Of a stretch of 64,000 bases of DNA, positions 2,313-12,818 are shown in pieces. The stretch is from an uncultured delta proteobacterium (GTDB lineage Bacteria > Myxococcota_A > Polyangia > Haliangiales > Haliangiaceae): assembly GCA_963772655.1 (NCBI GenBank), contig CAVYYE010000003.1:2737341-2801340 (forward strand), in the 5' to 3' direction. Each line of letters starts with the position of its first letter. Within the stretch, counting starts at the first letter, position 1. The notes beneath the pieces are model-generated. The model made no database searches. It saw only the letters and a program-made list of their open reading frames with translations, and was not told where the DNA came from. The translations under genes were made by a program, and so were the position numbers.

Positions 2313-3986
2313 TTGGCCCACATCACGTGGTTCGATCCGCCGCCGGATCGCGCCGCGCTGCCCGCACGGCTGCCATCGCCGTTCGCGGTACCGCCGCACC
2401 CGCTCGCCGAGCGCGCCGCCCGCGAGCTCCGCGATCGCGTGATGCGTGGCGAGCTCGACTCCGATTCCGCCGCGATCGTGGGCGACGCGCGACTCGACGC
2501 ACCCGGTAACGGCAAGATGTTCGGGGTGCTGGTCGTCGCCGACGGTGATGGTCGACTCGGCTATACGTGCGCGTTCTCCGGAATGCTCGGCGGACGGTGG
2601 CACGTGCCGGGCTTCGCGCCGCCGGTGTTCGACGAAGCAGCACGCGATCGGTTCTGGCCGGCCGGCGAAGCGGAGCTCGGCGGGATCGATCGCGAGCTCG
2701 CCACACTCGAGACGCGGATCGCCCCGGTGCGCGACGAGCTCGCGGGCCTCGACGATCGCCACCTCGCCGCACGCGAGCACCTGCGCGCGACCCACCTCGA
2801 ACGCCGGCGACAGCGCCGAGCCCGCCGCGAGGAGATCGCCGGCGATCCGGCCGAGCTGCGCGCGCTCGCGCACGCCAGCAGCGCCGACACCTCCGAGCGC
2901 AAACATCTCCTCGCCGAGCAGCGCGCCGAGCGAGCGCCGATCGCCGAGCGGCTCGTCGCCCTCGAACGCGACGCGACCGCGATCGAGCACCGCAAGGCCG
3001 CGCGGTCGCGCGAGCTCTTGATCGCGATCCACGACACCTACGTGCTCTCCGACGCGCGGGGCGAGCGCCGCACGTTGCGCGAGCTGTTCGCACCCGCCGA
3101 GCCGCCCGGCGGCGCCGGCGACTGCGCGGCTCCCAAGCTGCTGGCGTACGCGTACGCGAACGAGCTGCGTCCGATCGCGTTCGCCGAGATCTGGTGCGGT
3201 GGCCCGCCCGCCGCCGGCGGCCGTCACGACGGCACGCTGTACCCGGCGTGTCGCGGCAAGTGCGGGCCGATCCTGGCCCACGCGCTCGGCGGGCTCGACA
3301 CCGATCCGCTCCCGGTGTTCGGCGTGCCCGTGGTCGGCGATGACGAGCCGCGCACCGTGTTCGAAGACCCATGGCTCGCGATCGTCGACAAGCCGGTCGG
3401 CCTCCTGTCCGTGCCCGGCCGCGGCGATCACCTGCGCGACTCGGTGGCCGTGCGCATGCGCCGGCGCTATCCCGACGCCACCGGTCCCCTGCTGGTCCAC
3501 CGGCTCGACCTCGATACCTCGGGGCTGCTGGTGGTCGCCAAGGACCTCGCGACGTACCACGCGCTGCAGGCGCAGTTCGCGCGCCGCACGATCGACAAAC
3601 GCTACGTCGCGTGGCTCGAGGGCGAGGTCGCGGGCGAGTCCGGAACGATCGATCTACCCCTGCGCGTCGATCTCGACGACCGCCCGCGCAACATCGTCGA
3701 TCCGATCCATGGACGGCCGGCGATCACCGACTGGCGCGTGCTCGAGCGTGCCGGCGGTCGCACGCGGGTCGCGTTGTATCCGCGCACCGGTCGCAGCCAC
3801 CAGCTCCGAGTGCACTGCGCGCATCCGCGCGGGCTCGACGCGCCGATCGTCGGTGATCGGCTGTATGCCCGCGCGCCGCACGACGAGTCGCGCATGCTGC
3901 TACACGCCGAGGCGATCGCGTTCGATCACCCGCACACCGGCGAGCGGATCGCGCTCGAGTGCCCCGCTCCGTGGACGCCGTTGTGA
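2313..3986 (+). CDS. RluA-family pseudouridine synthase with a ~300-aa N-terminal extension.
   Basis: The C-terminal half carries the RluA catalytic core (HRLDLDTSGLLVVAKD...RYVAWLEGEV...). The protein is 557 aa. Its last ~80 codons are re-duplicated downstream in the tandem repeat. Confidence 0.8.
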   Translation: MAHITWFDPPPDRAALPARLPSPFAVPPHPLAERAARELRDRVMRGELDSDSAAIVGDARLDAPGNGKMFGVLVVADGDGRLGYTCAFSGMLGGRWHVPGFAPPVFDEAARDRFWPAGEAELGGIDRELATLETRIAPVRDELAGLDDRHLAAREHLRATHLERRRQRRARREEIAGDPAELRALAHASSADTSERKHLLAEQRAERAPIAERLVALERDATAIEHRKAARSRELLIAIHDTYVLSDARGERRTLRELFAPAEPPGGAGDCAAPKLLAYAYANELRPIAFAEIWCGGPPAAGGRHDGTLYPACRGKCGPILAHALGGLDTDPLPVFGVPVVGDDEPRTVFEDPWLAIVDKPVGLLSVPGRGDHLRDSVAVRMRRRYPDATGPLLVHRLDLDTSGLLVVAKDLATYHALQAQFARRTIDKRYVAWLEGEVAGESGTIDLPLRVDLDDRPRNIVDPIHGRPAITDWRVLERAGGRTRVALYPRTGRSHQLRVHCAHPRGLDAPIVGDRLYARAPHDESRMLLHAEAIAFDHPHTGERIALECPAPWTPL

Positions 3987-5409
3987 CCTGGCTCGCATCG
4001 CGGTTCCGAGGAACCGCTTCGTCGATCCCGGTGTGGCCTCCACGCGGTCACCGACGCAGAGGAGATCGCGTGCACGCTTCGCTGCGCCAGGTGAGGTCCC
4101 CTCGGCGTCTGCCGAACAACTGCAAGCGCCCGCGCGCACGGAGCTAGGTTCGTGCAGGACAGGACCGACCGGCGTAGACACAGCCGCCTCGAGGACCCCA
4201 CCCGGCTTGCCCGCGTTGACGAGATCGCGATCAGTTGCAGGTCGGGAACGCAGGTGACATCGCGATCGGCCGCGCAACATCGGCGATCCGGTCCACGGGT
4301 GACCCGCGGTCACCGACTGGCGCGTGATCGAGCGTGCCGGCGGTCGCACGCGGGTCGCGTTGTATCCGCGCACCGGCCGGAGCCACCAGCTCCGCGTGCA
4401 CTGCGCTCATCCGCACGGGCTCGACGCGCCGATCGTCGGTGATCGGCTACGCCCGCGCACCACACCACGAGCCGCGGATGCTGCTGCACGCCGAGGCGAT
4501 CGCGTTCGATCACCCGCACACCGGCGAGCGGATCGCGCTCGAGTGCCCCGCTCCGTGGACGCCGTTGTGACCTGGCTCGCATCGCGGTTCCGAGGAACCG
4601 CTTCGTCGATCCCGGTGTGGCCTCCACGCGGTCACCGACGCAGAGGAGATCGCGTGCACGCTTCGCTGCGCCAGGTGAGGTCCCCTCGGCGTCTGCCGAA
4701 CAACTGCAAGCGCCCGCGCGCACGGAGCTAGGTTCGTGCAGGACAGGACCGACCGGCGTAGACACAGCCGCCTCGAGGACCCCACCCGGCTTGCCCGCGT
4801 TGACGAGATCGCGATCAGTTGCAGGTCGGGAACGCTGGTGACATCGCGATCGGCCGCGCAACATCGGCGATCCGGTCCACGGGTGACCCGCGGTCACCGA
4901 CTGGCGCGTGATCGAGCGTGCCGGCGGTCGCACGCGGGTCGCGTTGTATCCGCGCACCGGTCGGAGCCACCAGCTCCGCGTGCACTGCGCGCATCCGCGC
5001 GGGCTCGACGCGCCGATCGTCGGTGATCGGCTGTATGCCCGCGCACCGCACGACGAGCCGCGGATGCTGCTGCACGCCGAGGCGATCGCGTTCGATCACC
5101 CGCACACCGGCGAGCGGATCGCGCTCGAGTGCCCCGCTCCGTGGACGCCGTTGTGACCTGGCTCGCATCGCGGTTCCGAGGAACCGCTTCGTCGATCCCG
5201 GTGTGGCCTCCACGCGTCACCGACGCAGAGGAGATCGCGTGCACGCTTCGCTGCGCCAGGTGAGGTCCCCTCGGCGTCTGCCGAACAACTGCAAGCGCCC
5301 GCGCGCACGGAGCTAGGTTCGTGCAGGACAGGACCGACCGGCGTAGACACAGCCGCCTCGAGGACCCCACCCGGCTTGCCCGCGTTGACGAGATCGCGAT
5401 CAGTTGCAG
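3721..5409. repeat. Tandem direct repeat with a 584-bp unit and ~2.9 near-identical copies. Each unit holds the 3' ~250 bp of the RluA-family gene plus ~335 bp of downstream sequence.
   Basis: The phase is seen directly: cgagcgtgccggcggtcgcacgcgggtcgcgttgtatccgcgcacc recurs at ~3740, 4324 and 4908. The C-terminal peptide ...HAEAIAFDHPHTGERIALECPAPWTPL* is re-encoded in ORFs 4334..4570 and 4908..5156. The copies differ by only a few substitutions. Confidence 0.9.
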
Positions 5410-5722
5410 CGATGTTCTCGACGAAACGTGCGACGCGAAGACGAGGCGGATCGATCCGCACTGTCGAACGGTCTCCGATAGTTCGATGCGAACGAGGGTT
5501 GTCGTCGAAAAACTCGATCGCGATGCAGTTTTGCCTTGACGCATCTCGCGGTGCCATCGCGCATCGATCGATGTCGCGAACCTGACGTGCGACCAGCCGC
5601 GTCGTGTGGAGCGCTGCGCGCACGAAATCGCCACGACCGTTTCTCGACGAGAAAATACGAAAACGGCGCACGTGCGCGAATCGAGAGCGTCGAAAACTCG
5701 CGTGGTACAGGAGGCATCTAGC

Positions 5723-5728
5723 AAGGAG
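5723..5728 (+). promoter_or_regulatory. Shine-Dalgarno sequence AAGGAG, 7 nt upstream of the HNH gene ATG.
   Basis: The sequence is gcAAGGAGtgtcgggATG. Confidence 0.5.
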
Positions 5729-5735
5729 TGTCGGG

Positions 5736-7271
5736 ATGGAGTCGACGAACGCGTGCGAGGTAGCGAACACGATCGCGAACGAGCTGCCGGATGAAACGAA
5801 CGCGAGCTGGCGCGAGATCGATCGCCGGCTCGGCACACTGGCGCGGCAACGCTGCGCGCTCGACGCCGAAGAGGCGCGCTGGTTGCGCGCCGCGGCGCGG
5901 TGCCGGATCTGGCAGCAGGTCGGCTGTGCGAGCCTGCTCGATTATCTCGAGCGCCGTCTCGGGTATGGCCCGCGCGCCGCGCAGGATCGCGTGCGGGTCG
6001 CGTTCGCGCTGGAGGAGTTGCCGGCGCTCGCCGACGAGCTCGAGCGCGGCATGCCGTACACCGCGGTGCGCGAGCTCTCTCGCGTCGCCACACGCGACAC
6101 CGAGCACGACTGGATCGCCGCGTGCCGCGGCAAGAACGTCCACGAGATCGAGCGAGCCGTCGCCGGTCACCGGCCCGGCTCGCGTCCGAGCGATCCGGGC
6201 GAGCCCGAGCTCGCCGGGCGACGCTTGCCGCTCGAAGACATCCGCCCGGCCACGCAGGCGGCGTGGCGCGAAGCGCGTCACAAGTTGCAGGCCGCGCGCG
6301 GAACCCACGTTTCCGACGACGAGCTGCTCGCTGCCCTGTGTGGCGTCTATCTCGAAGGCGCCAAAACGCCGGACGACGACGTGAATGCGGGTCGGGCCAA
6401 GTACCAGGTCGCGGTGACCGTGTGCGATCGCTGCCAGCAGGGCTGGCGAGATGGCGCCGGGCGCACGTTCCCGCTCGACGCGGCCGACACCGAGCGCGCG
6501 CTGTGCGACGCCCAGCATCTCGGTGCGCTCGACGGCGAGCCCGCACGCGCCACGCAGGACATCGCACCGCGCGTCCGCCGCTTCGTCGTGCGACGCGATC
6601 GCGGCACGTGCCGCGTGCCCGGTTGTCGATCCGCCGCCAACCTCGAGCTCCATCACATCGTGCCGCGCTCGCGCGGTGGCTCGCACCAGGCGTCCAACCT
6701 GATCCAGCTCTGCGACGGTTGCCACACCGCCCATCACCGCGACCTGATCGACATCGCCGGTACGTCGGACAAGCTCGTGGTGACCCGCCGCCACGAGCTC
6801 GGGCCCGTCGAGCTCGACCCCACCCGCGCCCACGTGGACGCCAGCACCCTCGATCACGCCCACGTGGGCACCGGCACCCTCGACCGCGCCCACGTGGGCG
6901 CAGGCACCCTCGATCGCACCGACGCGGGCGCAGGCACCCTCGACCGCACCGACGTGGGTGCCGGTACCCTCGACCGAACCGACGCGGGCGCCGGCACCAT
7001 CGACCGAACCGGCGCGGGCGCCGGCATCATCGACCGAACCGACGCGGGCGCCGGCATCATCGACCGCACCCACGTCGGCGCGCGACACCGACAGGGCGTG
7101 TTCGATCGCGTGGCCGCGCGAACGCAGGCCCTCGACGCGCTCGTGACGCTCGGCTTCAAACGCCACGAAGCGCGGTCGTACGTCGACGGCGCGATCGCCG
7201 AGCTCGGCCATCGCGCGACGGACCTCGAGGCTCTGTTGCGAGCGGCGCTCCAGCGAGTCCCTCACAGGTAG
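5736..7271 (+). CDS. DUF222/HNH endonuclease family protein (13E12-repeat type). It has a C-terminal 9-aa tandem repeat array and a RuvA domain-III-like tail.
   Basis: The HNH motif is present: CRVPGC...LELHHIVPRSRGG...CDGCHTAHH. An Arg/Ala-rich N-terminal domain resembles DUF222. The C-terminus carries 9 copies of (GAGTLDRTD)-like repeats, then ...ALDALVTLGFKRHEARSYV, which resembles RuvA domain III. The ATG at 5736 is preceded by AAGGAG. Confidence 0.8.
   Translation: MESTNACEVANTIANELPDETNASWREIDRRLGTLARQRCALDAEEARWLRAAARCRIWQQVGCASLLDYLERRLGYGPRAAQDRVRVAFALEELPALADELERGMPYTAVRELSRVATRDTEHDWIAACRGKNVHEIERAVAGHRPGSRPSDPGEPELAGRRLPLEDIRPATQAAWREARHKLQAARGTHVSDDELLAALCGVYLEGAKTPDDDVNAGRAKYQVAVTVCDRCQQGWRDGAGRTFPLDAADTERALCDAQHLGALDGEPARATQDIAPRVRRFVVRRDRGTCRVPGCRSAANLELHHIVPRSRGGSHQASNLIQLCDGCHTAHHRDLIDIAGTSDKLVVTRRHELGPVELDPTRAHVDASTLDHAHVGTGTLDRAHVGAGTLDRTDAGAGTLDRTDVGAGTLDRTDAGAGTIDRTGAGAGIIDRTDAGAGIIDRTHVGARHRQGVFDRVAARTQALDALVTLGFKRHEARSYVDGAIAELGHRATDLEALLRAALQRVPHR
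6837..7083 (+). repeat. Intragenic 27-bp in-frame tandem repeat, ~9 copies, encoding xVGAGTLDR(T/A)D.
   Basis: The unit ggcaccctcgaccgcaccgacgcgggcgcc and variants are visible directly. The array keeps the reading frame of the HNH gene. Confidence 0.85.
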
Positions 7272-7619
7272 ACCGGCGTCCCGAGAAGTTCGTCGCTCCC
7301 GGAGAGCGCGCGTTCGCATCAGGCGACTGGCGCTCGTGGGCCGCGCGCCCGCAGTCACCGCTCCGAGGCAAGGATCGACGCGACCGATGCCAACCGGCGC
7401 GGCCAAGAAGCCAGGACCACGCTCCGCGTTCTCTCCACCGCGAAGCCAAGAGCCCACGATCGCGCCCGCGTGGGTTCCGACGTGTGAGGGACTAACCCAG
7501 GTCTTGATCTTCCTCTCTCCTCGAGAACATCGTTCTCGTCCCTGGAGCGCCCGCCCCACCGATGCCGACCGGGATCCGCAAAGCCAGCAGCACGCTTCCC
7601 GTTTCCTGCGGTGCGTACG

Positions 7620-7763
7620 ACTCGATCGGCTTGCCCGCGTTGACGAGATCGCGATGCGCCGATCGTCGGTGATCGGCTGTATGCCCGCGCGCCGCACGAC
7701 GAGCCGCGCATACTGTCACACGAGGCGATCGCGTTCGATGACCCGCACACCGGCGAACGGCTC
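7620..7763 (+). repeat. Degenerate partial copy of the RluA 3'-end repeat. It is older and more diverged than the 3721..5409 copies.
   Basis: cttgcccgcgttgacgagatcgcgat is followed by gcgccgatcgtcggtgatcggctgtatgcccgcgcgccgcacgacgagccgcgcatactg.... This encodes APIVGDRLYARAPHDEPRIL.HEAIAFDDPHTGERLVFE. It has ~80-85% identity to the copies at 3840-3960 and 5000-5120. Confidence 0.75.
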
Positions 7764-7856
7764 GTGTTCGAGCGACTCGCCACGTTCCGAGTCCTCTACC
7801 GGATCCTGAAGACGGCGGGGTTGACACCCTGCACCCTGTCTCGGATCTTCGTTGCG

Positions 7857-8693
7857 TTGTCCCGTTCGTGTTGGCTCGTGCTGCTCGCCGCGTGTTCGTC
7901 AGCCGCGACCGCGCCACCGCGTTCGGAGACTCCCACATCGGTCGCGCCGTCCCCGCGAGTCCGGGCGCCCGCCTCCGACGAGCTCGCGCGCTCGCCGACG
8001 CTGCAACCACTTGCCTGGTTACTGGGCACGTGGTCCGGGAACGGCGCCGAGGTCACGTTCGCGGCCGTCGAGGGCGCGATCTACGGTGTCGAGATCGGAA
8101 GCGACGGCCACGTCGATCTCGTCGTGCTGGACGATGGCGAGGGGCGCAAACCCGCCGACGGTACGCTCCGCTGCTTCGTGCTTCCCGGCGCCGAGGTGGT
8201 CGACGACCGTCCCTGCGCGCTCCACGATCGGGTGCTCGAGCTCGACGATACGCGGTACTCGCTCGTCGGCGACGGCCTCTCGATGACGCGGGGCGCACGA
8301 ACCGTGGTGCTGTCGCCCGCCTCTCCGTCGTCCGCGCCCGCGATCGCCGCCGCCGATCGCGCGTTCTCGCAGGCAACGCGCGAGCATGGCGTCGCCGGTT
8401 GGGTCGGTGCGTTCGCGACCGACGGGGCGATGATCTCCGAGGCCGGCAAGATCGCCGGCGCCAAGGCGATCGAGGAGGAGATGTCCGCGTTCCTCGCTGC
8501 CGGTACGCTCGCGTGGGCGCCGAACGTCAGCGGCCAGCACGCCGGCGTCGGCTACACGATCGGCAAGGCCACCTACACGCCGAAGTCCGCCACTGCCAAG
8601 CCGTTCGGCACGACCTACGTCACGCTGTGGAAGCGCGAAGGCGACGCGTGGAAGGTCGCGCGTGACACCGGTCGCGCCGTCAACGCACCGTGA
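7857..8693 (+). CDS. Lipoprotein with a C-terminal SnoaL-like/DUF4440 (NTF2-fold) domain.
   Basis: A signal peptide plus lipobox (WLVLLAAC) follows a TTG at 7857. The upstream in-frame extension to ATG 7764 is the read-through tail of the degenerate RluA fragment, so the 7857 start is preferred. The alternative is 7764. The C-terminal WAPNVSGQHAGVGYTIG...TTYVTLWKREGDAWKV pattern is typical of the NTF2-like fold. Confidence 0.6.
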   Translation: MSRSCWLVLLAACSSAATAPPRSETPTSVAPSPRVRAPASDELARSPTLQPLAWLLGTWSGNGAEVTFAAVEGAIYGVEIGSDGHVDLVVLDDGEGRKPADGTLRCFVLPGAEVVDDRPCALHDRVLELDDTRYSLVGDGLSMTRGARTVVLSPASPSSAPAIAAADRAFSQATREHGVAGWVGAFATDGAMISEAGKIAGAKAIEEEMSAFLAAGTLAWAPNVSGQHAGVGYTIGKATYTPKSATAKPFGTTYVTLWKREGDAWKVARDTGRAVNAP

Positions 8694-8709
8694 CCGTGCG
8701 GTCGTGGCG

Positions 8710-9360
8710 CTAGTCGCACGCCGGAAACGCCGCGGTCATCGCGGCGAACGTGTTCTGCGTGGTGCCGCCGCACCGGCAGTCCGCGGGCTGCCCTGCCTGG
8801 TCGACGCACGGCACTTCCTCGTCGACGAACGACCGCGTGGGTGCGCAGTCCTGCGACAGGTCGAGGAAGTCGTTGCAGTTGGCACCGATCGACAGGTTGG
8901 CCGCCATCTCCGCGTAGCCGATCAGCGCCATCTGGCAGGCGCGCACCGCGGTGGGGAGCGCGTCGCCGAACACGAACTCGAGCTGGTGACCGGGACGGCA
9001 GCTCGCCGGCACCACCATCGTCGTGCCCGCAGATCCCGCCCAGTACGTCGTCGTGAACACGATCTCGACGTGCGGCACCGCGCCGGGATCCGTCTCGACG
9101 ATCTGGATCGGGAACGGCGCCAGCCCACCGCGGATGCACGCCGCCGTCTCGGCAAAATCGGGCCGGCTGTACGGCGGCAACTGCATCGGCCCGTCGACGA
9201 GCAGGCTGAGGTTCTGGATCGCGTCGTCGAACGTCCCGGCATCGTACGCACCGCCGCCGGCGTTGAGGTACAGGATCGCCGGCTGACACGCGGCGTCTGC
9301 CGATGGCGCGTCACCACCGCCGCAACCGAGGGCGAGCACGAGGACCGCGGCGGCACGCAC
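8710..9360 (-). CDS. Cys-rich secreted lipoprotein, hypothetical.
   Basis: A GTG start leads into a signal peptide plus lipobox (RAAAVLVLALGC). The mature part has 12 Cys. The overlapping plus-strand ORF 8662..9564 is Arg-rich antisense noise. Confidence 0.6.
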   Translation of the reverse strand: MRAAAVLVLALGCGGGDAPSADAACQPAILYLNAGGGAYDAGTFDDAIQNLSLLVDGPMQLPPYSRPDFAETAACIRGGLAPFPIQIVETDPGAVPHVEIVFTTTYWAGSAGTTMVVPASCRPGHQLEFVFGDALPTAVRACQMALIGYAEMAANLSIGANCNDFLDLSQDCAPTRSFVDEEVPCVDQAGQPADCRCGGTTQNTFAAMTAAFPACD

Positions 9361-9606
9361 CCCTCCAGTGTACGCCGGTCGCGTCCAGCAAGTGAACCCA
9401 ACTGCTCGCTCGCTACTTCGCCTCCAGCATCCGTCGAGCTGCTTGCCGGCACGACGAGGCGAAGGCGCGGCTCGAACGACTCGCGAAGTCACTCGACGAG
9501 CAACGCCTGGCGCCGCGTGGTCGCTGCGCGAGGCTCGACGAGACGCTCGCGGATCCTCGCCTGATGCAAAAGCACGAACGGGAGCTATGTCTTGGTGCGC
9601 GAGGCG

Positions 9607-10176
9607 ATGAGAACCACCCAGTTTGTCGTCCAAGCGTCGATCGCCTGCGTGATCGTCGCGGTGCTCCCGACGTGTTCGGGCGGCGGCACGTCCGCAGCGG
9701 CGACGGTCAACGGTCAGCCGCTACAGCCGCTCGCAGAGGGCGAACTGAAGCTGATCTTCGGCCCGAAGCCCGACGACACGATCCTCGTTCACATCGATGG
9801 CTCTTTCGAGGTCGTGCATCCGGAGCACGCGTCCATGCGTGCGTGCGGAGGAGACTGTTCACGGCGCGTCGAACGGTTCACCGTCACGGGAGACAAGATC
9901 GTACAGGGCTCCCGCGAGCTGTTGTCGCGGGCCGCCAACGGTAACGTCGACATGTGGGGACTCGGCCAGATCACGATCGATCACGATGGCGTGCTCATCC
10001 AGTCCGGGCAGCGGCGCGCCGTCGATCCGAGCGGTCGCTTGCCACACGCCGACGGCCAGCCCGACGTGACGATCGTCGGCGCGACGACACCGGAGTTGCG
10101 CCGACGCGCGATGCTCGTCCTCGTGTTCGTCAACCTCGCAACGGCGGCGTCGGCTCTCGATCAAGCGTCTCATTGA
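9607..10176 (+). CDS. Hypothetical secreted protein or lipoprotein.
   Basis: The ATG is at 9607. The N-terminal hydrophobic segment is QASIACVIVAVLPTC. No recognisable domain was found. Confidence 0.5.
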   Translation: MRTTQFVVQASIACVIVAVLPTCSGGGTSAAATVNGQPLQPLAEGELKLIFGPKPDDTILVHIDGSFEVVHPEHASMRACGGDCSRRVERFTVTGDKIVQGSRELLSRAANGNVDMWGLGQITIDHDGVLIQSGQRRAVDPSGRLPHADGQPDVTIVGATTPELRRRAMLVLVFVNLATAASALDQASH

Positions 10177-10490
10177 CCGAGCGCGAGCCGTACGAACAGG
10201 ATCGCGAGCGATACGCACGCTCACCCTCATCCGGCCCCACGCCGAAATACACCAGCTCGTGAGTGCCGATGATCATTCGATCGTCCAGGACCGGAGGCGA
10301 CGCCGTCGAGCACGAGCCCGGCAGCCGAAAACCACCTGGCTCACTTCGTCTCGAGGAACCAACTCTTCTTGGCCTTGGGTGCCGTGTCGAAGTCGGACAT
10401 GACGGACCTGTCGACCGTAACCGTCATCGGTTGCGCCGTTTCAGACGCCCGGCAGGACTGTTGCCTACGCCTGCTCGTTAGTGCCGATGA

Positions 10491-12818
10491 TCATTCGATC
10501 GTCCACGCCGATGGCGGGACGTGGAACTTCGTCGTGCCGGTCTCGATCAGCGAGGCACCACCGTGCAGCGACCCGGCGAGCGTCGGGATCACCTTGTACT
10601 TGGCGTTGAAGGTCTGACCGGGCTGCAGCGGGTTGACGTAGAGGTCGACCTTGCCGTCGGCGATCTGGAACCGCGACAGCTGACCCGAGTCGACGAGCGC
10701 CTCGAGGCTCGGGCGGTCGGGTTGCACGCCCGCGGGCAGTGCGTGCTGGATGTGGACCGGGCGACCCGACGGCGCGATGGCGACGAGCGGCACGTCGATC
10801 GGACGGCCGACCTTGCCGGTCAGCGTGTCGGGGAGCGACAGCTCGAGACCCTTCTGCGTGGTCTGCTTCTCCCAGGGCACCCACGCCTGGAGCGTGAGCG
10901 CGTAGCCGAGGCCGGGGACGGCAGGATCGGCGGCGATCGTCCACTCGTGCGAGCCCGACAGACCGGAGGCGGCACCGTCGAGCACGAGCACGTCCTTGAG
11001 CTGCGTGCTGTCGAACTGCCCGGTCGCGACCGGCGTGCCGTCCATCGCGAGGGTGATCTTCACCGACGACGGCAACGGCGACTTGAACAGCTTCAGGATC
11101 GCGCGCATGCACGACAGGTTCGTGATGCCGTCACCCCAGCCGTAGACCGGCGTGTAGCCCGACAGCAGCGTGGTCCCGAGATCGGCGAGCGGCGCGTTCT
11201 TCACACCCTCGAGCGCGAGCACCGCGAGCGCGGTGGCCTCGACGCGCGACGGCCGCCTGCCATCGGCGCGCACCACGTTCTCGGCGACCTCGAGGAACTT
11301 CGCGCCGTCGGTCGTGGCCTCGATCGCGTCGAGGACCCGCTTCCGCAGGGTCGTGGCGAGCGTCGACTTCGGATCGATCGCGCCGCTCGCGAGGATCGCC
11401 GCGGCGGTGTAGCCGTCGGTGACCTGCTCGGAAGTGCGAGCGAATGCACCCTGCGCCTTGGCCCGCACGCCCATCGCGCGCTGACGAGCGCGCGCCTCGG
11501 AGCTCGGATCGATGCTGGCCGTCGCCGCACGCGTGGCGTCGGCGGTGGTCACCAGCACGCGCTGCAACGTCCACCCGGTCGCACCGGAGAACGTGCCGTC
11601 GGGTCGCTGGTGCTGCGCGAGGTAGGCCTCCGCGCGCTCGCCGAGTCGCGACAGCACCGGGTTACCCGGATGCGAGAGTGCGGCCTCGGCGAGCATGGTC
11701 GCGCGCGTGACGTCGAGCGTGCGACCGTGATGGATCGCGCGCTGCGCGGTGACCAGCGACAGCTCGCGCAGGACATCGGGATCGGGCTTGTCGCCGAGCT
11801 GGAGCAGGAGCTTGGGCGCCACGCCGGCGAGAAGTAGCGCGTAGCTATCCTCGGCGACGCCCGCGCGGGCGACCGACACGCCGAGCTCGGAGCGCAGCAC
11901 CGCGAGCGCGCCCGGGTACACCAGGAGCCGCACGCGATCGGTGCTCGGGTCGGAGCCCGCCGGACCTTCGATCGTGGCCTTGCGCGGCGCGGCCAGCGTG
12001 CCCGAGCGTGTCACGGTCACCGGCTTGCCCGACGGGATCACGTCGATCGTGTGTGCGACGGCATCGGTGCCACCGAGCGCGACCCGCAACGCGATCGTGC
12101 CGGCGCGGTTCGCAGTCAGCGTCGCGTAGTCGACGAGGTTGCCCCGCGCCGGGATCGACTTCGGTCCACCACCACCGGCGAGCTGGGCACCTTCGATCTG
12201 GTAGCTCAGGTTCGCCGTGATCGGCTTGTCGGTGGTGTTGACCATCTGCACCGGCAACCGGATCTTGTCGCCGGCGATCAGGAACGGCGGCACCACGGGA
12301 TCGACGTAGCTCGGTAGCGTGCCGAGGAAGCTGGTCGTCGCGCCGGCCTGCGCACCGGTACGCGAGTGCGCGAGTGCGAGCACGCGCCACGTCGTCAGGC
12401 GATCGGGTACGTGCACCGGTACGGTCGCGGCACCCGCGTCGTCGGTGACGACCAGCGGCTCGAACAGGAAGCTCTCGGGAAACCACGAGCGCGTCGGGGT
12501 CTCCGCCGCGTCGTCGGCCGGGCCCGCCGCCCCGTTGATCGTCTTGGACGCGGGCTTCTTGGGGGGCATGGACTTCGCGTCCATGTGTCCCCTCGTGCGT
12601 TCGTTCTTGCCCATCTTCCCTTCGTCCATCGCCATGGCGGTCCCGGCACCGCCCGCCATGTCGTCGCCGTCGAGCTCCTTCTGCGCCTCGGCGACCGCGG
12701 CCGGCCTGTCGGCCATCGGCTCCTCGGGAGCCTTGTCGGAGGTGGAGGTTGCATCCTTCGCGTTGCACGACAGCGCGAGCGCCGCGACGGCGAGGGTTGT
12801 CCGCATCGAACCTCTCAT
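10491..12818 (-). CDS. Alpha-2-macroglobulin family protein, C-terminal half (bait-region-like low-complexity N-terminus, FPETWLW-like motif, TED/receptor-binding region). No CxEQ thioester motif is present.
   Basis: The motif WFPESFLFEP matches the FPETWLW motif that follows the bait region in A2M. The protein is ~775 aa from ATG 12818. That start (MRGSMRTTLAVAALALSC) overlaps the upstream stop in an ATGA arrangement. A search for CGEQ/CxEQ found nothing. Confidence 0.7.
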   Translation of the reverse strand: MRGSMRTTLAVAALALSCNAKDATSTSDKAPEEPMADRPAAVAEAQKELDGDDMAGGAGTAMAMDEGKMGKNERTRGHMDAKSMPPKKPASKTINGAAGPADDAAETPTRSWFPESFLFEPLVVTDDAGAATVPVHVPDRLTTWRVLALAHSRTGAQAGATTSFLGTLPSYVDPVVPPFLIAGDKIRLPVQMVNTTDKPITANLSYQIEGAQLAGGGGPKSIPARGNLVDYATLTANRAGTIALRVALGGTDAVAHTIDVIPSGKPVTVTRSGTLAAPRKATIEGPAGSDPSTDRVRLLVYPGALAVLRSELGVSVARAGVAEDSYALLLAGVAPKLLLQLGDKPDPDVLRELSLVTAQRAIHHGRTLDVTRATMLAEAALSHPGNPVLSRLGERAEAYLAQHQRPDGTFSGATGWTLQRVLVTTADATRAATASIDPSSEARARQRAMGVRAKAQGAFARTSEQVTDGYTAAAILASGAIDPKSTLATTLRKRVLDAIEATTDGAKFLEVAENVVRADGRRPSRVEATALAVLALEGVKNAPLADLGTTLLSGYTPVYGWGDGITNLSCMRAILKLFKSPLPSSVKITLAMDGTPVATGQFDSTQLKDVLVLDGAASGLSGSHEWTIAADPAVPGLGYALTLQAWVPWEKQTTQKGLELSLPDTLTGKVGRPIDVPLVAIAPSGRPVHIQHALPAGVQPDRPSLEALVDSGQLSRFQIADGKVDLYVNPLQPGQTFNAKYKVIPTLAGSLHGGASLIETGTTKFHVPPSAWTIE

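Follow-up and report, generated by a model that had tools for sequence, protein, structure and literature searches.

Based on a comparative analysis of the rluA locus of a Myxococcota bacterium, it was proposed that a homing-endonuclease-like cassette entered the locus by break repair, that rluA kept a replacement 3' end, and that later breaks amplified the adjoining DNA locally. We assign this reading a probability of about 0.5. The HNH endonuclease gene of the putative cassette lies between young copies of the rluA 3' end, which are ~1.2-1.4% apart, and an old copy that has diverged by 12%, just as an initial annotation of the window (the whole stretch of 64,000 nucleotides that was analysed) had described.

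Organization of the rluA locus

The features of the locus were assigned as follows.

2313-3986, + strand: live rluA, a 557-aa fusion with an RluA pseudouridine synthase domain at residues ~347-553
3677-4240, + strand: tandem unit 1, the 3' portion of rluA (codon ~456 to the stop at 3984-3986), then spacer
4241-4262, + strand: junction filler, recurring at 4825-4846 with one mismatch
4263-4824, + strand: tandem unit 2, a dead copy of the rluA 3' end, with an in-frame TGA and 2 nt deleted, then spacer
4847-5409, + strand: tandem unit 3, another dead copy of the rluA 3' end, with an in-frame TGA and with 1 nt missing from its spacer
5372-5400, + strand: 29-nt repeat, left copy bracketing the HNH segment (others at 4203-4231 and 4787-4815)
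5410-5735, + strand: HNH leader, GC 0.59 against 0.68-0.73 in the neighbours
5736-7271, + strand: HNH endonuclease ORF, 511 aa, Pfam HNH PF01844 at 2.4e-9
6794-7123, + strand: 30-nt tandem repeats coding the decapeptide linker, their copy number varying among paralogs
7272-7626, + strand: trailer, 3' of the HNH stop, with no stable fold
7627-7655, + strand: 29-nt repeat, right copy, joined directly to rluA position 3840
7656-7790, + strand: rluA 3'-end relic, equivalent to 3840-3972
7821-8693, + strand: lipoprotein gene with a TTG start, the lipobox LLAAC and a weak DUF4440-like C-terminus
8710-9633, - strand: conserved convergent gene, which adjoins the rluA stop directly in the closest relatives

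The synthase domain of rluA was matched by Pfam PF00849 (8.8e-30) and by the NCBIfam model rluA_subfam (1.2e-47), and the reading frame of 557 aa was intact despite the adjoining rearrangement. The LigD-kinase-rluA synteny was kept in orthologs of 61-71% identity. A LigD primase-polymerase gene (end joining) was located at 467-1405 of the window and was counted for the break-repair model.

The near-identical repeats of ~584 bp that had been noted to the left of the HNH gene were resolved into three head-to-tail units with a period of 584-586 bp and 96.8-97% identity over 564-1150 nt. The spacer of unit 1 (254 nt), which follows the rluA stop, terminated with the 29-nt block and CAGTTGCAG. Unit 3 terminated at CAGTTGCAG as well, and the HNH leader started there, the right edge of the amplified unit being the left edge of the cassette. 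No template for the 22-nt junction filler was seen across the rest of the window, and neither sigma-70 promoters nor intrinsic terminators were found by a scan of 3900-8000.

The proposal that the whole insert had been tandemly amplified did not hold, since the HNH gene is not part of the amplified unit, and units 2 and 3 do not simply repeat unit 1. The first ~64 nt of units 2 and 3 were 23% different from the live rluA, with a bias to third codon positions, and the divergence of unit 1 from units 2 and 3 followed a gradient of 23%, 3.7% and 0% approaching the cassette. Thirteen positions differed within 3678-3839, 8 of them at third codon positions and 3 as I/V/L swaps (binomial P = 0.035). 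This third-position bias, which rests on 13 sites, together with the I/V/L swaps suggests that part of units 2 and 3 derived from another functional rluA allele. The live gene was 23% different from units 2 and 3 up to 3741 and at most 3.7% from there on, and its last ~80 codons were of the same sequence lineage as these units. The apparently chimeric structure of the live rluA is compatible with a conversion tract, and also with later gene conversion between the local copies.

The 29-nt block CGGCTTGCCCGCGTTGACGAGATCGCGAT occurred in four exact copies, at 4203, 4787, 5372 and 7627, when 0 were expected by chance. It formed the end of every 584-586-bp tandem unit, and it was present both to the left and to the right of the HNH gene, thus bracketing the HNH segment. 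The junction of the block with position 3840 had its only instance at the right copy. The repeat around the cassette might represent a duplicated target, a recombination core or templated filler. A dif/Xer-like site was also considered and was rejected by inspection only, as no inverted-arm symmetry was seen.

The relic of the old rluA 3' end

A diverged copy of the rluA C-terminal coding sequence had been reported to the right of the HNH gene, and the alignment confirmed it. The segment 7652-7780 matched rluA 3836-3967 with 87.9% identity over 132 nt (E 4.6e-42), and tblastn with RluA residues 499-549 recovered the same relic (E 1.3e-14). Its first 48 nt (7656-7703) were exactly those of the live copy at 3840-3887. 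The remaining ~85 nt carried 15 differences, a 3-nt deletion included, the divergence being 12% overall and ~18% outside the identical block. The changes were distributed over codon positions 1, 2 and 3 as 7/3/4, in addition to the deletion, and 10 of them were non-synonymous; the differences therefore have the pattern of neutral decay.

The end of the relic was informative as to its origin. About 45 fusion-type RluA orthologs terminate with [AS]PF-stop, whereas the live copy and units 2 and 3 terminate atypically with APWTPL-stop. The relic terminates with ATF (7785-7787) followed by CGA (7788-7790), which is one base away from TGA, at the stop position of the orthologs, and its homology ceases exactly there. 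Owing to this ortholog-like end, as opposed to the atypical end of the live gene, the relic looks like the displaced original end of rluA. Its boundaries were unlike those of the tandem units, as it starts at 3840 rather than at 3677, lacks the spacer and reaches a native-like stop position.

The relic was in frame with the ORF 7764-8693 and stop-free from 7656 on, hence it reads through into the N-terminal extension of the lipoprotein ORF, as had been observed earlier. The true start of the lipoprotein is probably the TTG at 7821. The relic was considerably more diverged than either the tandem units or the 29-nt repeats; the old end may therefore have been displaced before the HNH gene arrived, and independently of it. 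The perfect 29-nt repeats beside an old relic would fit an HNH gene that arrived after the fresh rluA end.

Comparison with related rluA loci

The RluA proteins of the closest relatives were 61-71% identical to that of the window, the nearest being the metagenomic relative L068 at 71%, and the best match in the GTDB species set reached 65%. The rluA stop adjoins the convergent gene in L068 and L004. In L068 this gene was 61% identical to its counterpart in the window, the gene end being at 9614 and the rluA stop at 9611. The convergent gene was present in L002 too, where the junction with rluA holds an unrelated 297-aa ORF, so this junction is variable among relatives. Because the rluA stop adjoins the convergent gene in the closest relatives, 3987-8709 represents extra DNA, the lipoprotein gene included, and the convergent gene marks its right edge. 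No rluA-derived repeats were found at the HNH-free rluA loci of relatives, a result in line with the insertion that had been read from the window at first.

It had also been assumed that the ancestral rluA end lay next to the lipoprotein gene. The relic does behave like a displaced original end; however, neither the lipoprotein gene nor the HNH gene was found at rluA in any of 62 GTDB rluA loci or in L068. Since in the closest relatives the convergent gene adjoins the rluA stop instead, the adjacency of rluA and the lipoprotein gene can only be a recent intermediate state and not a deep ancestral arrangement.

The HNH gene and its protein

The HNH ORF was stand-alone between host genes, with its own leader and a ribosome-binding site (AAGGAG, 7 nt 5' of the ATG), and it gave no Rfam intron match. 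The leader was indeed AT-richer than its surroundings, as noticed initially. Motifs common to the window and four homologous loci were recognized when the five leaders were aligned, namely (A)TTTxG-CTTGAC around 5527-5545 and CGAAAA..GTGnTAnA around 5693-5712, both conserved upstream of distant family members. Two paralogs in one metagenome genome were collinear exactly across the leader and the ORF. Searches of the leader and the trailer for a structured or guide RNA gave no relevant Rfam match, and the fold z-scores were 0.23 and 0.21. No homolog of the trailer was found elsewhere in the window or at other HNH loci, and the 29-nt block and the spacer showed no conservation at those loci either. 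The GC3 of the HNH gene was 0.865, which is host-like, so there was no compositional sign of foreign origin.

Residues ~25-150 of the protein form a helical N-terminal domain, which is DUF222-like in relatives, and a zinc-finger HNH domain follows at ~280-350. A disordered linker of decapeptide repeats (366-452) leads to a C-terminus that resembles RuvA domain III (455-507; PF07499, 2.7e-7). The motif CxxC...HH...N...CxxCH...H of the HNH domain was intact, and among 32 sequences C292, C297, H306, C326, H330 and H334 were invariant, with H307 and N321 nearly so. Profile matches of the HNH domain in the PDB were to a group II intron maturase (2.1e-7), IscB (8.8e-7) and McrA, the last also being found by Foldseek (6.7e-3). 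The NCBIfam IscB model (NF040563) matched at 2.5e-14 over the HNH part only, and the whole protein scored 53 bits against a cut-off of 175. An RNA-guided IscB nuclease was therefore rejected, as the score was below the cut-off, a RuvC domain was lacking and the leader had no Rfam match or fold. As for defence systems and phage families, the protein matched them at the level of the HNH domain only.

The structure of the C-terminus was predicted with a pLDDT of ~95 over residues 455-506. Foldseek aligned 46-51 residues to RuvA chains with an rmsd of 0.9-2.7 A and 31-41% identity. The target-normalised TM-score to 7pbm_H was 0.75, with weak Foldseek E-values (0.2-5, none <= 0.001). As modelled, the C-terminal domain matches RuvA domain III in sequence and fold.

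Distribution of the HNH family

The source genome carries at least six copies of the HNH gene, four on the 2.89-Mb contig (P0001, P0121, P0002 and P0003), one on a 2.68-Mb contig (P0004) and a truncated one on a 0.79-Mb contig (P0122), provided that the three contigs belong to one genome, as was inferred. A selfish gene would be expected to multiply in this way, and the HNH gene is probably selfish, as had been suspected.

The family comprised ~1,500 clusters at 50% identity (E <= 1e-30), and the RuvA_C domain was present in 26 of 32 members. Pfam PF02720 (DUF222) was weakly matched by 11 of the 32 aligned relatives (best E 1.3e-6) and was not matched by the window protein at E <= 0.01. For this reason the HNH/RuvA_C family is a distant relative of the DUF222-HNH (REP13E12) proteins and not a clear member. 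The label DUF222-HNH given at first was thus correct as regards the intact HNH domain and the several dispersed copies, and it failed as regards DUF222 itself.

Repeats of 140-600 nt were found near the HNH gene at 4 of 6 independent family loci and in 0 of 72 control windows (Fisher P = 1e-5), when non-overlapping repeats of at least 140 nt and at least 84% identity within +-4.75 kb were counted. The controls were rluA-centred 9.5-kb windows of comparable high-GC genomes, which may under-represent accessory regions. The window had been chosen for its repeats, and the count without it was 3/5 against 0/72. Flanking repeats were absent at L065 and L069.

The other family loci that were examined had no duplicated host-gene end, and tblastx searches 3' of their HNH genes for decayed host-gene ends returned compositional high-GC noise only. 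At five other loci the HNH gene was alone among housekeeping genes, with no adjoining recombinase gene. All contigs of the recN-HNH locus (L069-L076) were collinear and showed no strain-level difference in gene presence. Scans with the HNH protein yielded only two loci, weak and short, in metagenomes and no match in the viral collection.

Proposed history of the locus

We proposed that 5410-7626 is a self-contained multi-copy HNH cassette, consisting of the conserved leader, the 511-aa ORF and the trailer, which would resemble a free-standing homing-endonuclease gene. DNA bearing this cassette would have entered rluA in its 3' part, at or close to the codons for APIVGDRLY (3840), the most conserved motif of the protein. 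The incoming DNA would have brought a replacement rluA 3' end and a new downstream spacer of 245 nt, and rluA would have stayed intact because the replacement was supplied. The original 3' end would thereby have been displaced 3.8 kb downstream, where it would have decayed to the relic fused in frame with the lipoprotein ORF.

The most likely route would be double-strand-break repair. On the left side, homologous copying from an HNH-bearing rluA allele could have made the live gene chimeric from about 3742, and on the right side a non-homologous or short-repeat join could have produced the 29-nt/3840 junction. Further breaks at a later time, close to the cassette's left edge, followed by unequal recombination or end joining, would have given the three copies of the rluA 3' part with spacer, which were then homogenised. 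We infer that the HNH enzyme made the breaks and that the replacement end was copied from a foreign or allelic donor. The cassette and the replacement end may have come in one step, or in two, the cassette arriving later at the spacer/relic junction with the 29-bp duplication. As classical homing leaves the target unduplicated, the model has to assume repair that was one-sided or illegitimate. Simple homing would not predict a perfect 29-nt repeat flanking the cassette either, and this counts against the model.

It seems unlikely that the segment is the remnant of a site-specific integrative element which, by means of its own recombinase, integrated at the APIVGDRLY-coding sequence with a replacement 3' end. 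The 48-nt block (3840-3887 and 7656-7703) would then be the att core, the 29-nt repeats would be arm sites and the HNH gene would be cargo, the recombinase gene having been deleted later. Perfect identity over 48 nt followed by ~18% divergence is the pattern of an att core beside a displaced host end, rluA is left intact by the replacement, direct repeats lie at both junctions, and the 29-nt sequence occurs in both putative arms. However, no integrase, transposase or recombinase was found among the large ORFs from 1 to ~33 kb, nor in 3840-7703, where only a short segment with the HNH gene as its sole gene lies between the putative cores. The multi-copy HNH gene also stands without a recombinase among the housekeeping genes of the five other loci. 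Furthermore, the 48-nt block codes the most conserved RluA motif, gene conversion could equally preserve its identity, and perfect arm sites of 29 nt would be unusually long.

Ordinary local duplication by unequal crossing-over or slippage, unrelated to the nuclease, is similarly improbable. The relic would be the oldest duplicate, and the HNH gene would be a passive resident or an independent insertion. The junction of rluA with the convergent gene is variable in relatives, as in L002 with its unrelated ORF, and short repeats ATCGCGATC are present at the unit junction (4224-4232 and 4258-4266). As the relic is much older than the tandem units, a minimum of two events is required in any case. 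Against this, the relic differs from the tandem units in its boundaries, repeats of this kind were found at HNH loci and in none of the control windows, the amplified unit ends where the cassette begins, and the 29-nt repeat flanks the cassette on both sides.

An assembly artefact, in which the 584-bp units or the 29-nt/3840 junction arose from mis-assembled paralogous or strain-variant reads, is very improbable: near-identical repeats are error-prone in assembly and the distinguishing 1-2-nt indels could be sequencing errors, but the 2.9 Mb source contig suggests a long-read assembly, each unit has consistent private substitutions, both unit junctions carry the same filler with one substitution, and the relic is diverged, with unique sequence on either side.

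The cassette model makes the locus an unusually readable scar of the entry of a nuclease gene into a chromosome and of its reshaping. A single locus preserves the displaced end, the replacement end, the bracketing 29-nt repeat and the young tandem array, and relatives show the undisturbed state. On this model a nuclease gene can alter the end of a housekeeping gene and leave that gene alive, and can give rise to read-through fusions with a downstream ORF.

DUF222-type HNH genes have been classed as "repeats" (REP13E12) ever since the genome of M. tuberculosis was first sequenced, and we know of no account of how they multiply in bacterial chromosomes. With the repeat enrichment, the shared leader motifs and the RuvA-domain-III-like tail, what was a vague suspicion of selfishness can be put as testable statements on the cut site and the repair route. 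It is a speculative and rather doubtful extension that the HNH/RuvA-domain-III proteins of Myxococcota form a distinct class of chromosomal selfish nucleases, which spread as a leader and ORF cassette to conserved gene ends by break repair and RuvB docking. If so, the RuvA-domain-III mimic would dock on the host RuvB motor and drive branch migration across the cassette, thus promoting its copying, and the duplicated and amplified flanks (the rluA array and the relic) would be a side effect of cassette spread.

Comparison with known systems

The HNH domain of the window protein was closest in sequence and fold to those of the IscB, group II intron and McrA types. The protein lacks a reverse transcriptase, unlike group II introns, and neither an Rfam match nor a stable fold was found in the leader.

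Islands and prophages that target the 3' ends of tRNA, tmRNA and protein genes resemble the window in several respects: the element-borne 3' end keeps the target intact, the original end is displaced to the far side, and a block of perfect identity (48 nt here) is found at both junctions. In contrast to them, the window segment is tiny, it carries no recombinase, and its only gene is an HNH nuclease that is solitary elsewhere.

The REP13E12/DUF222-HNH genes of Mycobacterium and other Actinobacteria are likewise multi-copy HNH genes in repeated DNA without an associated transposase, and their N-terminal domain is distantly related to that of the window family (11/32 match PF02720). The window family differs by having RuvA_C (26/32) and by its occurrence in Myxococcota, and the window protein itself has no DUF222 match. 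REP13E12 is known as an attachment target of phage phiRv1, and nothing comparable was seen at the window locus.

The Seg and Mob homing-endonuclease genes of T4-like phages share with the window a stand-alone nuclease gene that has its own upstream region and lies beside a highly conserved host gene. The absence of the gene from relatives, of which the nearest has an RluA of 71% identity, may be a presence/absence difference of the same kind, and the apparently chimeric rluA beside it may reflect co-conversion. Unlike these genes, the window gene is chromosomal and belongs to a bacterium of the Myxococcota, not to a phage, and its protein has another architecture, in which the DUF222-like helical domain, the HNH zinc finger and the decapeptide linker are followed by the RuvA-domain-III-like tail. 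Clean homing neither duplicates the end of its target nor leaves a relic, as seen at the window locus. At least six copies of the window type appear to occupy different places in one genome. One free-standing enzyme of this kind, SegB, was recently shown to bring about tandem amplification of the segment beside its own gene by break-induced recombination (PMC13096335), which is a precedent for the amplification proposed here.

Organization of the rluA 3' region

The window had a GC content of 0.68 and came from a member of the Myxococcota. An ORF at 2313..3986 encoded a 557-aa protein with an RluA-type pseudouridine synthase in its C-terminal third. The N-terminal ~340 residues (2313-3350) formed a long fused region without a Pfam match, which is conserved across 62 loci from Myxococcota, Gemmatimonadota and a few further lineages. 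The final ~100 codons of rluA and a 254-nt 3' spacer were found in three head-to-tail copies beginning at 3677, with a period of 584-586 bp, an overall identity of 96.8-97% and a 22-nt filler at both unit-unit junctions; the near-identical 584-bp repeats reported left of the HNH gene in the initial annotation were thereby confirmed. The following features were distinguished:

3677-4240, tandem unit 1, rluA 3' part and spacer
4263-4824, tandem unit 2, dead, with an in-frame TGA and a 2-nt deletion
4847-5409, tandem unit 3, dead, with an in-frame TGA and a 1-nt deletion, ending with CAGTTGCAG at 5409
5410..5735, HNH leader, 326 nt, GC 0.59
5736..7271, HNH ORF, 511 aa, with AAGGAG 7 nt upstream
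7272..7626, trailer, 355 nt, preceding a 29-nt block
7627-7655, 29-nt block
7656-7787, relic, a diverged copy of rluA 3840-3972 (88% identity, E = 4.6e-42)

By their sequence, units 2 and 3 were not plain copies of the live rluA. Unit 1 diverged from them by 23% in the region 3678-3741, by 3.7% in 3745-3905 and by 0% in 3906-4240. Among the 13 differences in 3678-3839, eight fell on third codon positions (seven synonymous) and three were I/V/L exchanges; the third-position excess gave a binomial P of 0.035 in this small sample of 13 sites. Small as the sample is, such a bias points to another functional rluA allele (donor DNA) as the source of the left part of units 2 and 3, and to the live rluA being a chimera joined near 3742. 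Alternatively, concerted evolution, with gene conversion proceeding from breaks near the cassette edge, would yield the same divergence gradient along the units.

The relic was joined directly to the 29-nt block and was in frame with the ORF 7764..8693, the actual product of which was a lipoprotein starting at ~TTG 7821. Both the diverged partial rluA copy right of the HNH gene and its read-through into the N-terminal extension of the lipoprotein ORF, as described initially, were reproduced when the alignment was performed. The C-termini of all fetched orthologs were compared, and in ~45 orthologs of the same fusion type the stop came directly after ...[AS]PF. The relic read ...ERLATF and then CGA, one transition from TGA, exactly at the ortholog stop position, where its rluA homology also ended. 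The live rluA and units 2 and 3 ended in ...CPAPWTPL-stop, which was found in none of the fetched orthologs (one ended in APW). The relic showed 15 differences from the live copy (7, 3 and 4 at codon positions 1, 2 and 3), 10 of them non-synonymous, and an in-frame 3-nt deletion by which the conserved LLHAE motif was lost; this is the pattern of a dead fragment. Because of this pattern and the ortholog-like ending, the most plausible reading of the relic is that of a vertically inherited rluA end that was displaced, in line with the earlier view of the old copy as the ancestral 3' end. The live 3' end shares its lineage with the tandem units. Over its first 48 nt the relic was identical to the live copy, and beyond them it differed by ~18% (post-hoc P = 7e-4). 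These 48 nt and the perfect 29-nt block made up a 77-nt "young" junction adjoining the old relic.

The rluA locus in relatives

The best RluA orthologs were found in Haliangiales and Kofleriaceae MAGs; those of the GTDB species set reached 61-65% identity and the one from a JGI metagenome 71%. Four GTDB loci (L001-L004) had the LigD-primase/Ser-Thr kinase/rluA order of the window, as did the closest metagenomic relative (L068). The rluA stop of L068 and that of L004 abutted the end of a conserved opposite-strand gene, a homolog of window 8710..9633. Neither an HNH gene nor a lipoprotein gene was found near rluA in the 62 GTDB rluA loci or in L068. For these reasons, window 3987-8709 is extra DNA, and the junction that carries it varies from genome to genome. 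In L002, rluA and the convergent gene were separated by an unrelated 297-aa secreted-protein ORF (11673-12566), so the junction is a recurrent site of accessory DNA. The ancestral adjacency of rluA and the lipoprotein gene assumed in the initial annotation was not borne out by the same loci and could at most represent an intermediate stage of this lineage.

The LigD primase-polymerase and Ser/Thr kinase genes were located directly upstream of rluA (467-2307), with synteny kept in relatives; an end-joining polymerase gene thus neighbours a locus rich in filler-DNA junctions. Two large PF10136 (SpecificRecomb) genes occupied L068 10318-14311, between the convergent gene and an A2M-like gene, where the window had only ~850 nt. 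An AT-richer stretch (GC ~0.61) between these two genes in the window held a 40-nt direct repeat (10248-10287 and 10466-10505, 93% identity, 218 nt apart). Further away, an 836-aa ORF (30746-33253, forward strand) had matches to the Major Vault Protein shoulder (1.4e-24) as well as to vault repeat domains, so that its product is a bacterial MVP-like protein.

The HNH gene and its product

The leader was AT-richer than its surroundings, as had been noted before. In the structure model, residues 25-150 of the protein formed a helical N-domain (pLDDT >95). The catalytic and metal residues of the HNH zinc-finger domain were invariant across 32 relatives. A linker, predicted to be disordered and built of decapeptide repeats (e.g. 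LDRAHVGAGT), was encoded by ~ten 30-nt tandem repeats (6794-7123) and connected the HNH domain to a C-terminal three-helix domain (residues 455-507) matching RuvA domain III both in fold and by sequence (PF07499, 2.7e-7). The latter was superimposed on RuvA chains with an rmsd of 0.9-2.7 A and 31-41% identity over ~50 residues, at weak Foldseek E-values (0.2-5); against the isolated domain of a RuvAB complex the target-normalised TM-score was 0.75. This C-terminus was present in 26 of the 32 relatives. Since RuvA domain III contacts RuvB, the nuclease may, by analogy, dock on the host branch-migration motor. A 28-nt near-perfect palindrome (7189-7216) was located in the RuvA_C-coding 3' part of the ORF.

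The protein had no match to Pfam DUF222, and 11 of the 32 relatives matched it weakly; hence the DUF222 (13E12) assignment made initially describes a distant kinship, not membership. The HNH domain was nearest to those of IscB, group II intron and McrA nucleases. Unlike IscB and group II intron systems, the protein lacked RuvC and reverse transcriptase domains, and the leader carried no RNA signal.

The family comprised 1,494 clusters at 50% identity (E <= 1e-30). At least six copies were present in the source genome: P0001, P0121 (in the 90%-identity cluster of P0001), the truncated P0122, and P0002, P0003 and P0004 (~84% identity in aligned columns). Linker-repeat number (about 2 to 12) was the main difference among the full-length copies. 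At five further independent loci, namely L065, L067 (= L066), L069-L076, L077 and L079 (= L078), the HNH gene stood alone among housekeeping genes, and no recombinase was found. Two leader motifs were shared by five loci including the window, (A)TTTCG-CTTGAC ~190 nt and CGAAAA..GTGnTAnA ~45 nt before the ATG. L067 and L079, paralogs of one metagenome genome, were collinear exactly from the leader start to the stop codon; the multiplying unit is therefore the leader with the ORF. Three independent metagenome contigs of the recN-HNH locus (L074, L075, L076) ended ~90-240 nt past the HNH stop, as expected if the DNA just 3' of the gene were repeated or variable in populations.

Repeats around family members

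Four of six independent loci had non-overlapping repeats of at least 140 nt and at least 84% identity in the 4.75 kb on either side of the HNH gene. Among 72 control windows of 9.5 kb, taken from comparable high-GC loci, there was no such case (Fisher P = 1e-5). The window itself had been chosen for its repeats; without it, the counts were 3/5 and 0/72.

Repeats at HNH loci
Window: 564 nt, direct
L067: 147 nt, direct, one copy abutting the leader exactly
L077: ~600 nt, inverted, with the final ~25 HNH codons inside the repeat
L079: 150-225 nt, in both orientations

The end of a host gene was included only in the window. In L077, inverted arrays of a ~378-nt unit (4350-5730 and 7359-7993, 85% identity over ~600 nt) flanked the HNH homolog; as the unit contains the last ~25 HNH codons, partial HNH 3' ends have been copied on both sides. 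The HNH genes of L067 and L079 were surrounded by ~150-nt repeat copies in both orientations (L067 6870-7755; L079 5202-5358 and 8665-9171), and CATTGCTCC was repeated 16 times directly before the L079 leader.

Origin of the locus

In the best-supported reading, given a probability of about 0.5, a homing-endonuclease-like cassette would have inserted into the 3' region of rluA by break repair, and later breaks would have amplified the array. On the left, homologous copying would have supplied a replacement end for rluA; on the right, a non-homologous or short-repeat join would have left the original end as the relic. Later breaks near the left cassette edge would then have amplified and homogenised the rluA'-spacer segment. 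That the enzyme caused the breaks is what we infer. End-joining capacity (LigD) was encoded 4 kb away. Every observation of the initial annotation held, and its interpretation was borne out in part.

Simple homing leaves the 29-nt bracket unexplained, the block being identical to that closing the spacer of each unit (4203, 4787, 5372). The bracket could be a long target duplication, an end-joining templated filler, or a recombination core, the cassette having been inserted later at the spacer/relic junction. The contrast of the young 77-nt junction with the old relic speaks for this last, two-step history.

A decayed recombinase-driven island carrying the HNH gene as cargo would account for the 48-nt core and the replacement rluA end; however, no recombinase was found from window position 1 to ~33 kb and the HNH gene multiplies alone at other loci, which makes such an origin improbable. 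Local duplication independent of the nuclease fits the variable rluA/convergent-gene junction, but it was held to be just as doubtful, given that the relic boundaries differ from those of the tandem units, the repeat edges coincide with the cassette edges and repeats are enriched across the HNH family. Mis-assembly is unlikely, as the units carry consistent private substitutions and the relic is bordered by unique sequence.

The locus is best explained by a free-standing nuclease gene of homing-like type, accompanied by replacement of the target end and by segmental amplification. SegB of phage T6, a free-standing homing endonuclease, drives recombination-dependent segmental amplification beside its own gene (PMC13096335), and an amplification of the same kind is proposed here for the rluA'-spacer array. 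The present gene is chromosomal and encodes an unusual fusion to a RuvA-domain-III-like module.
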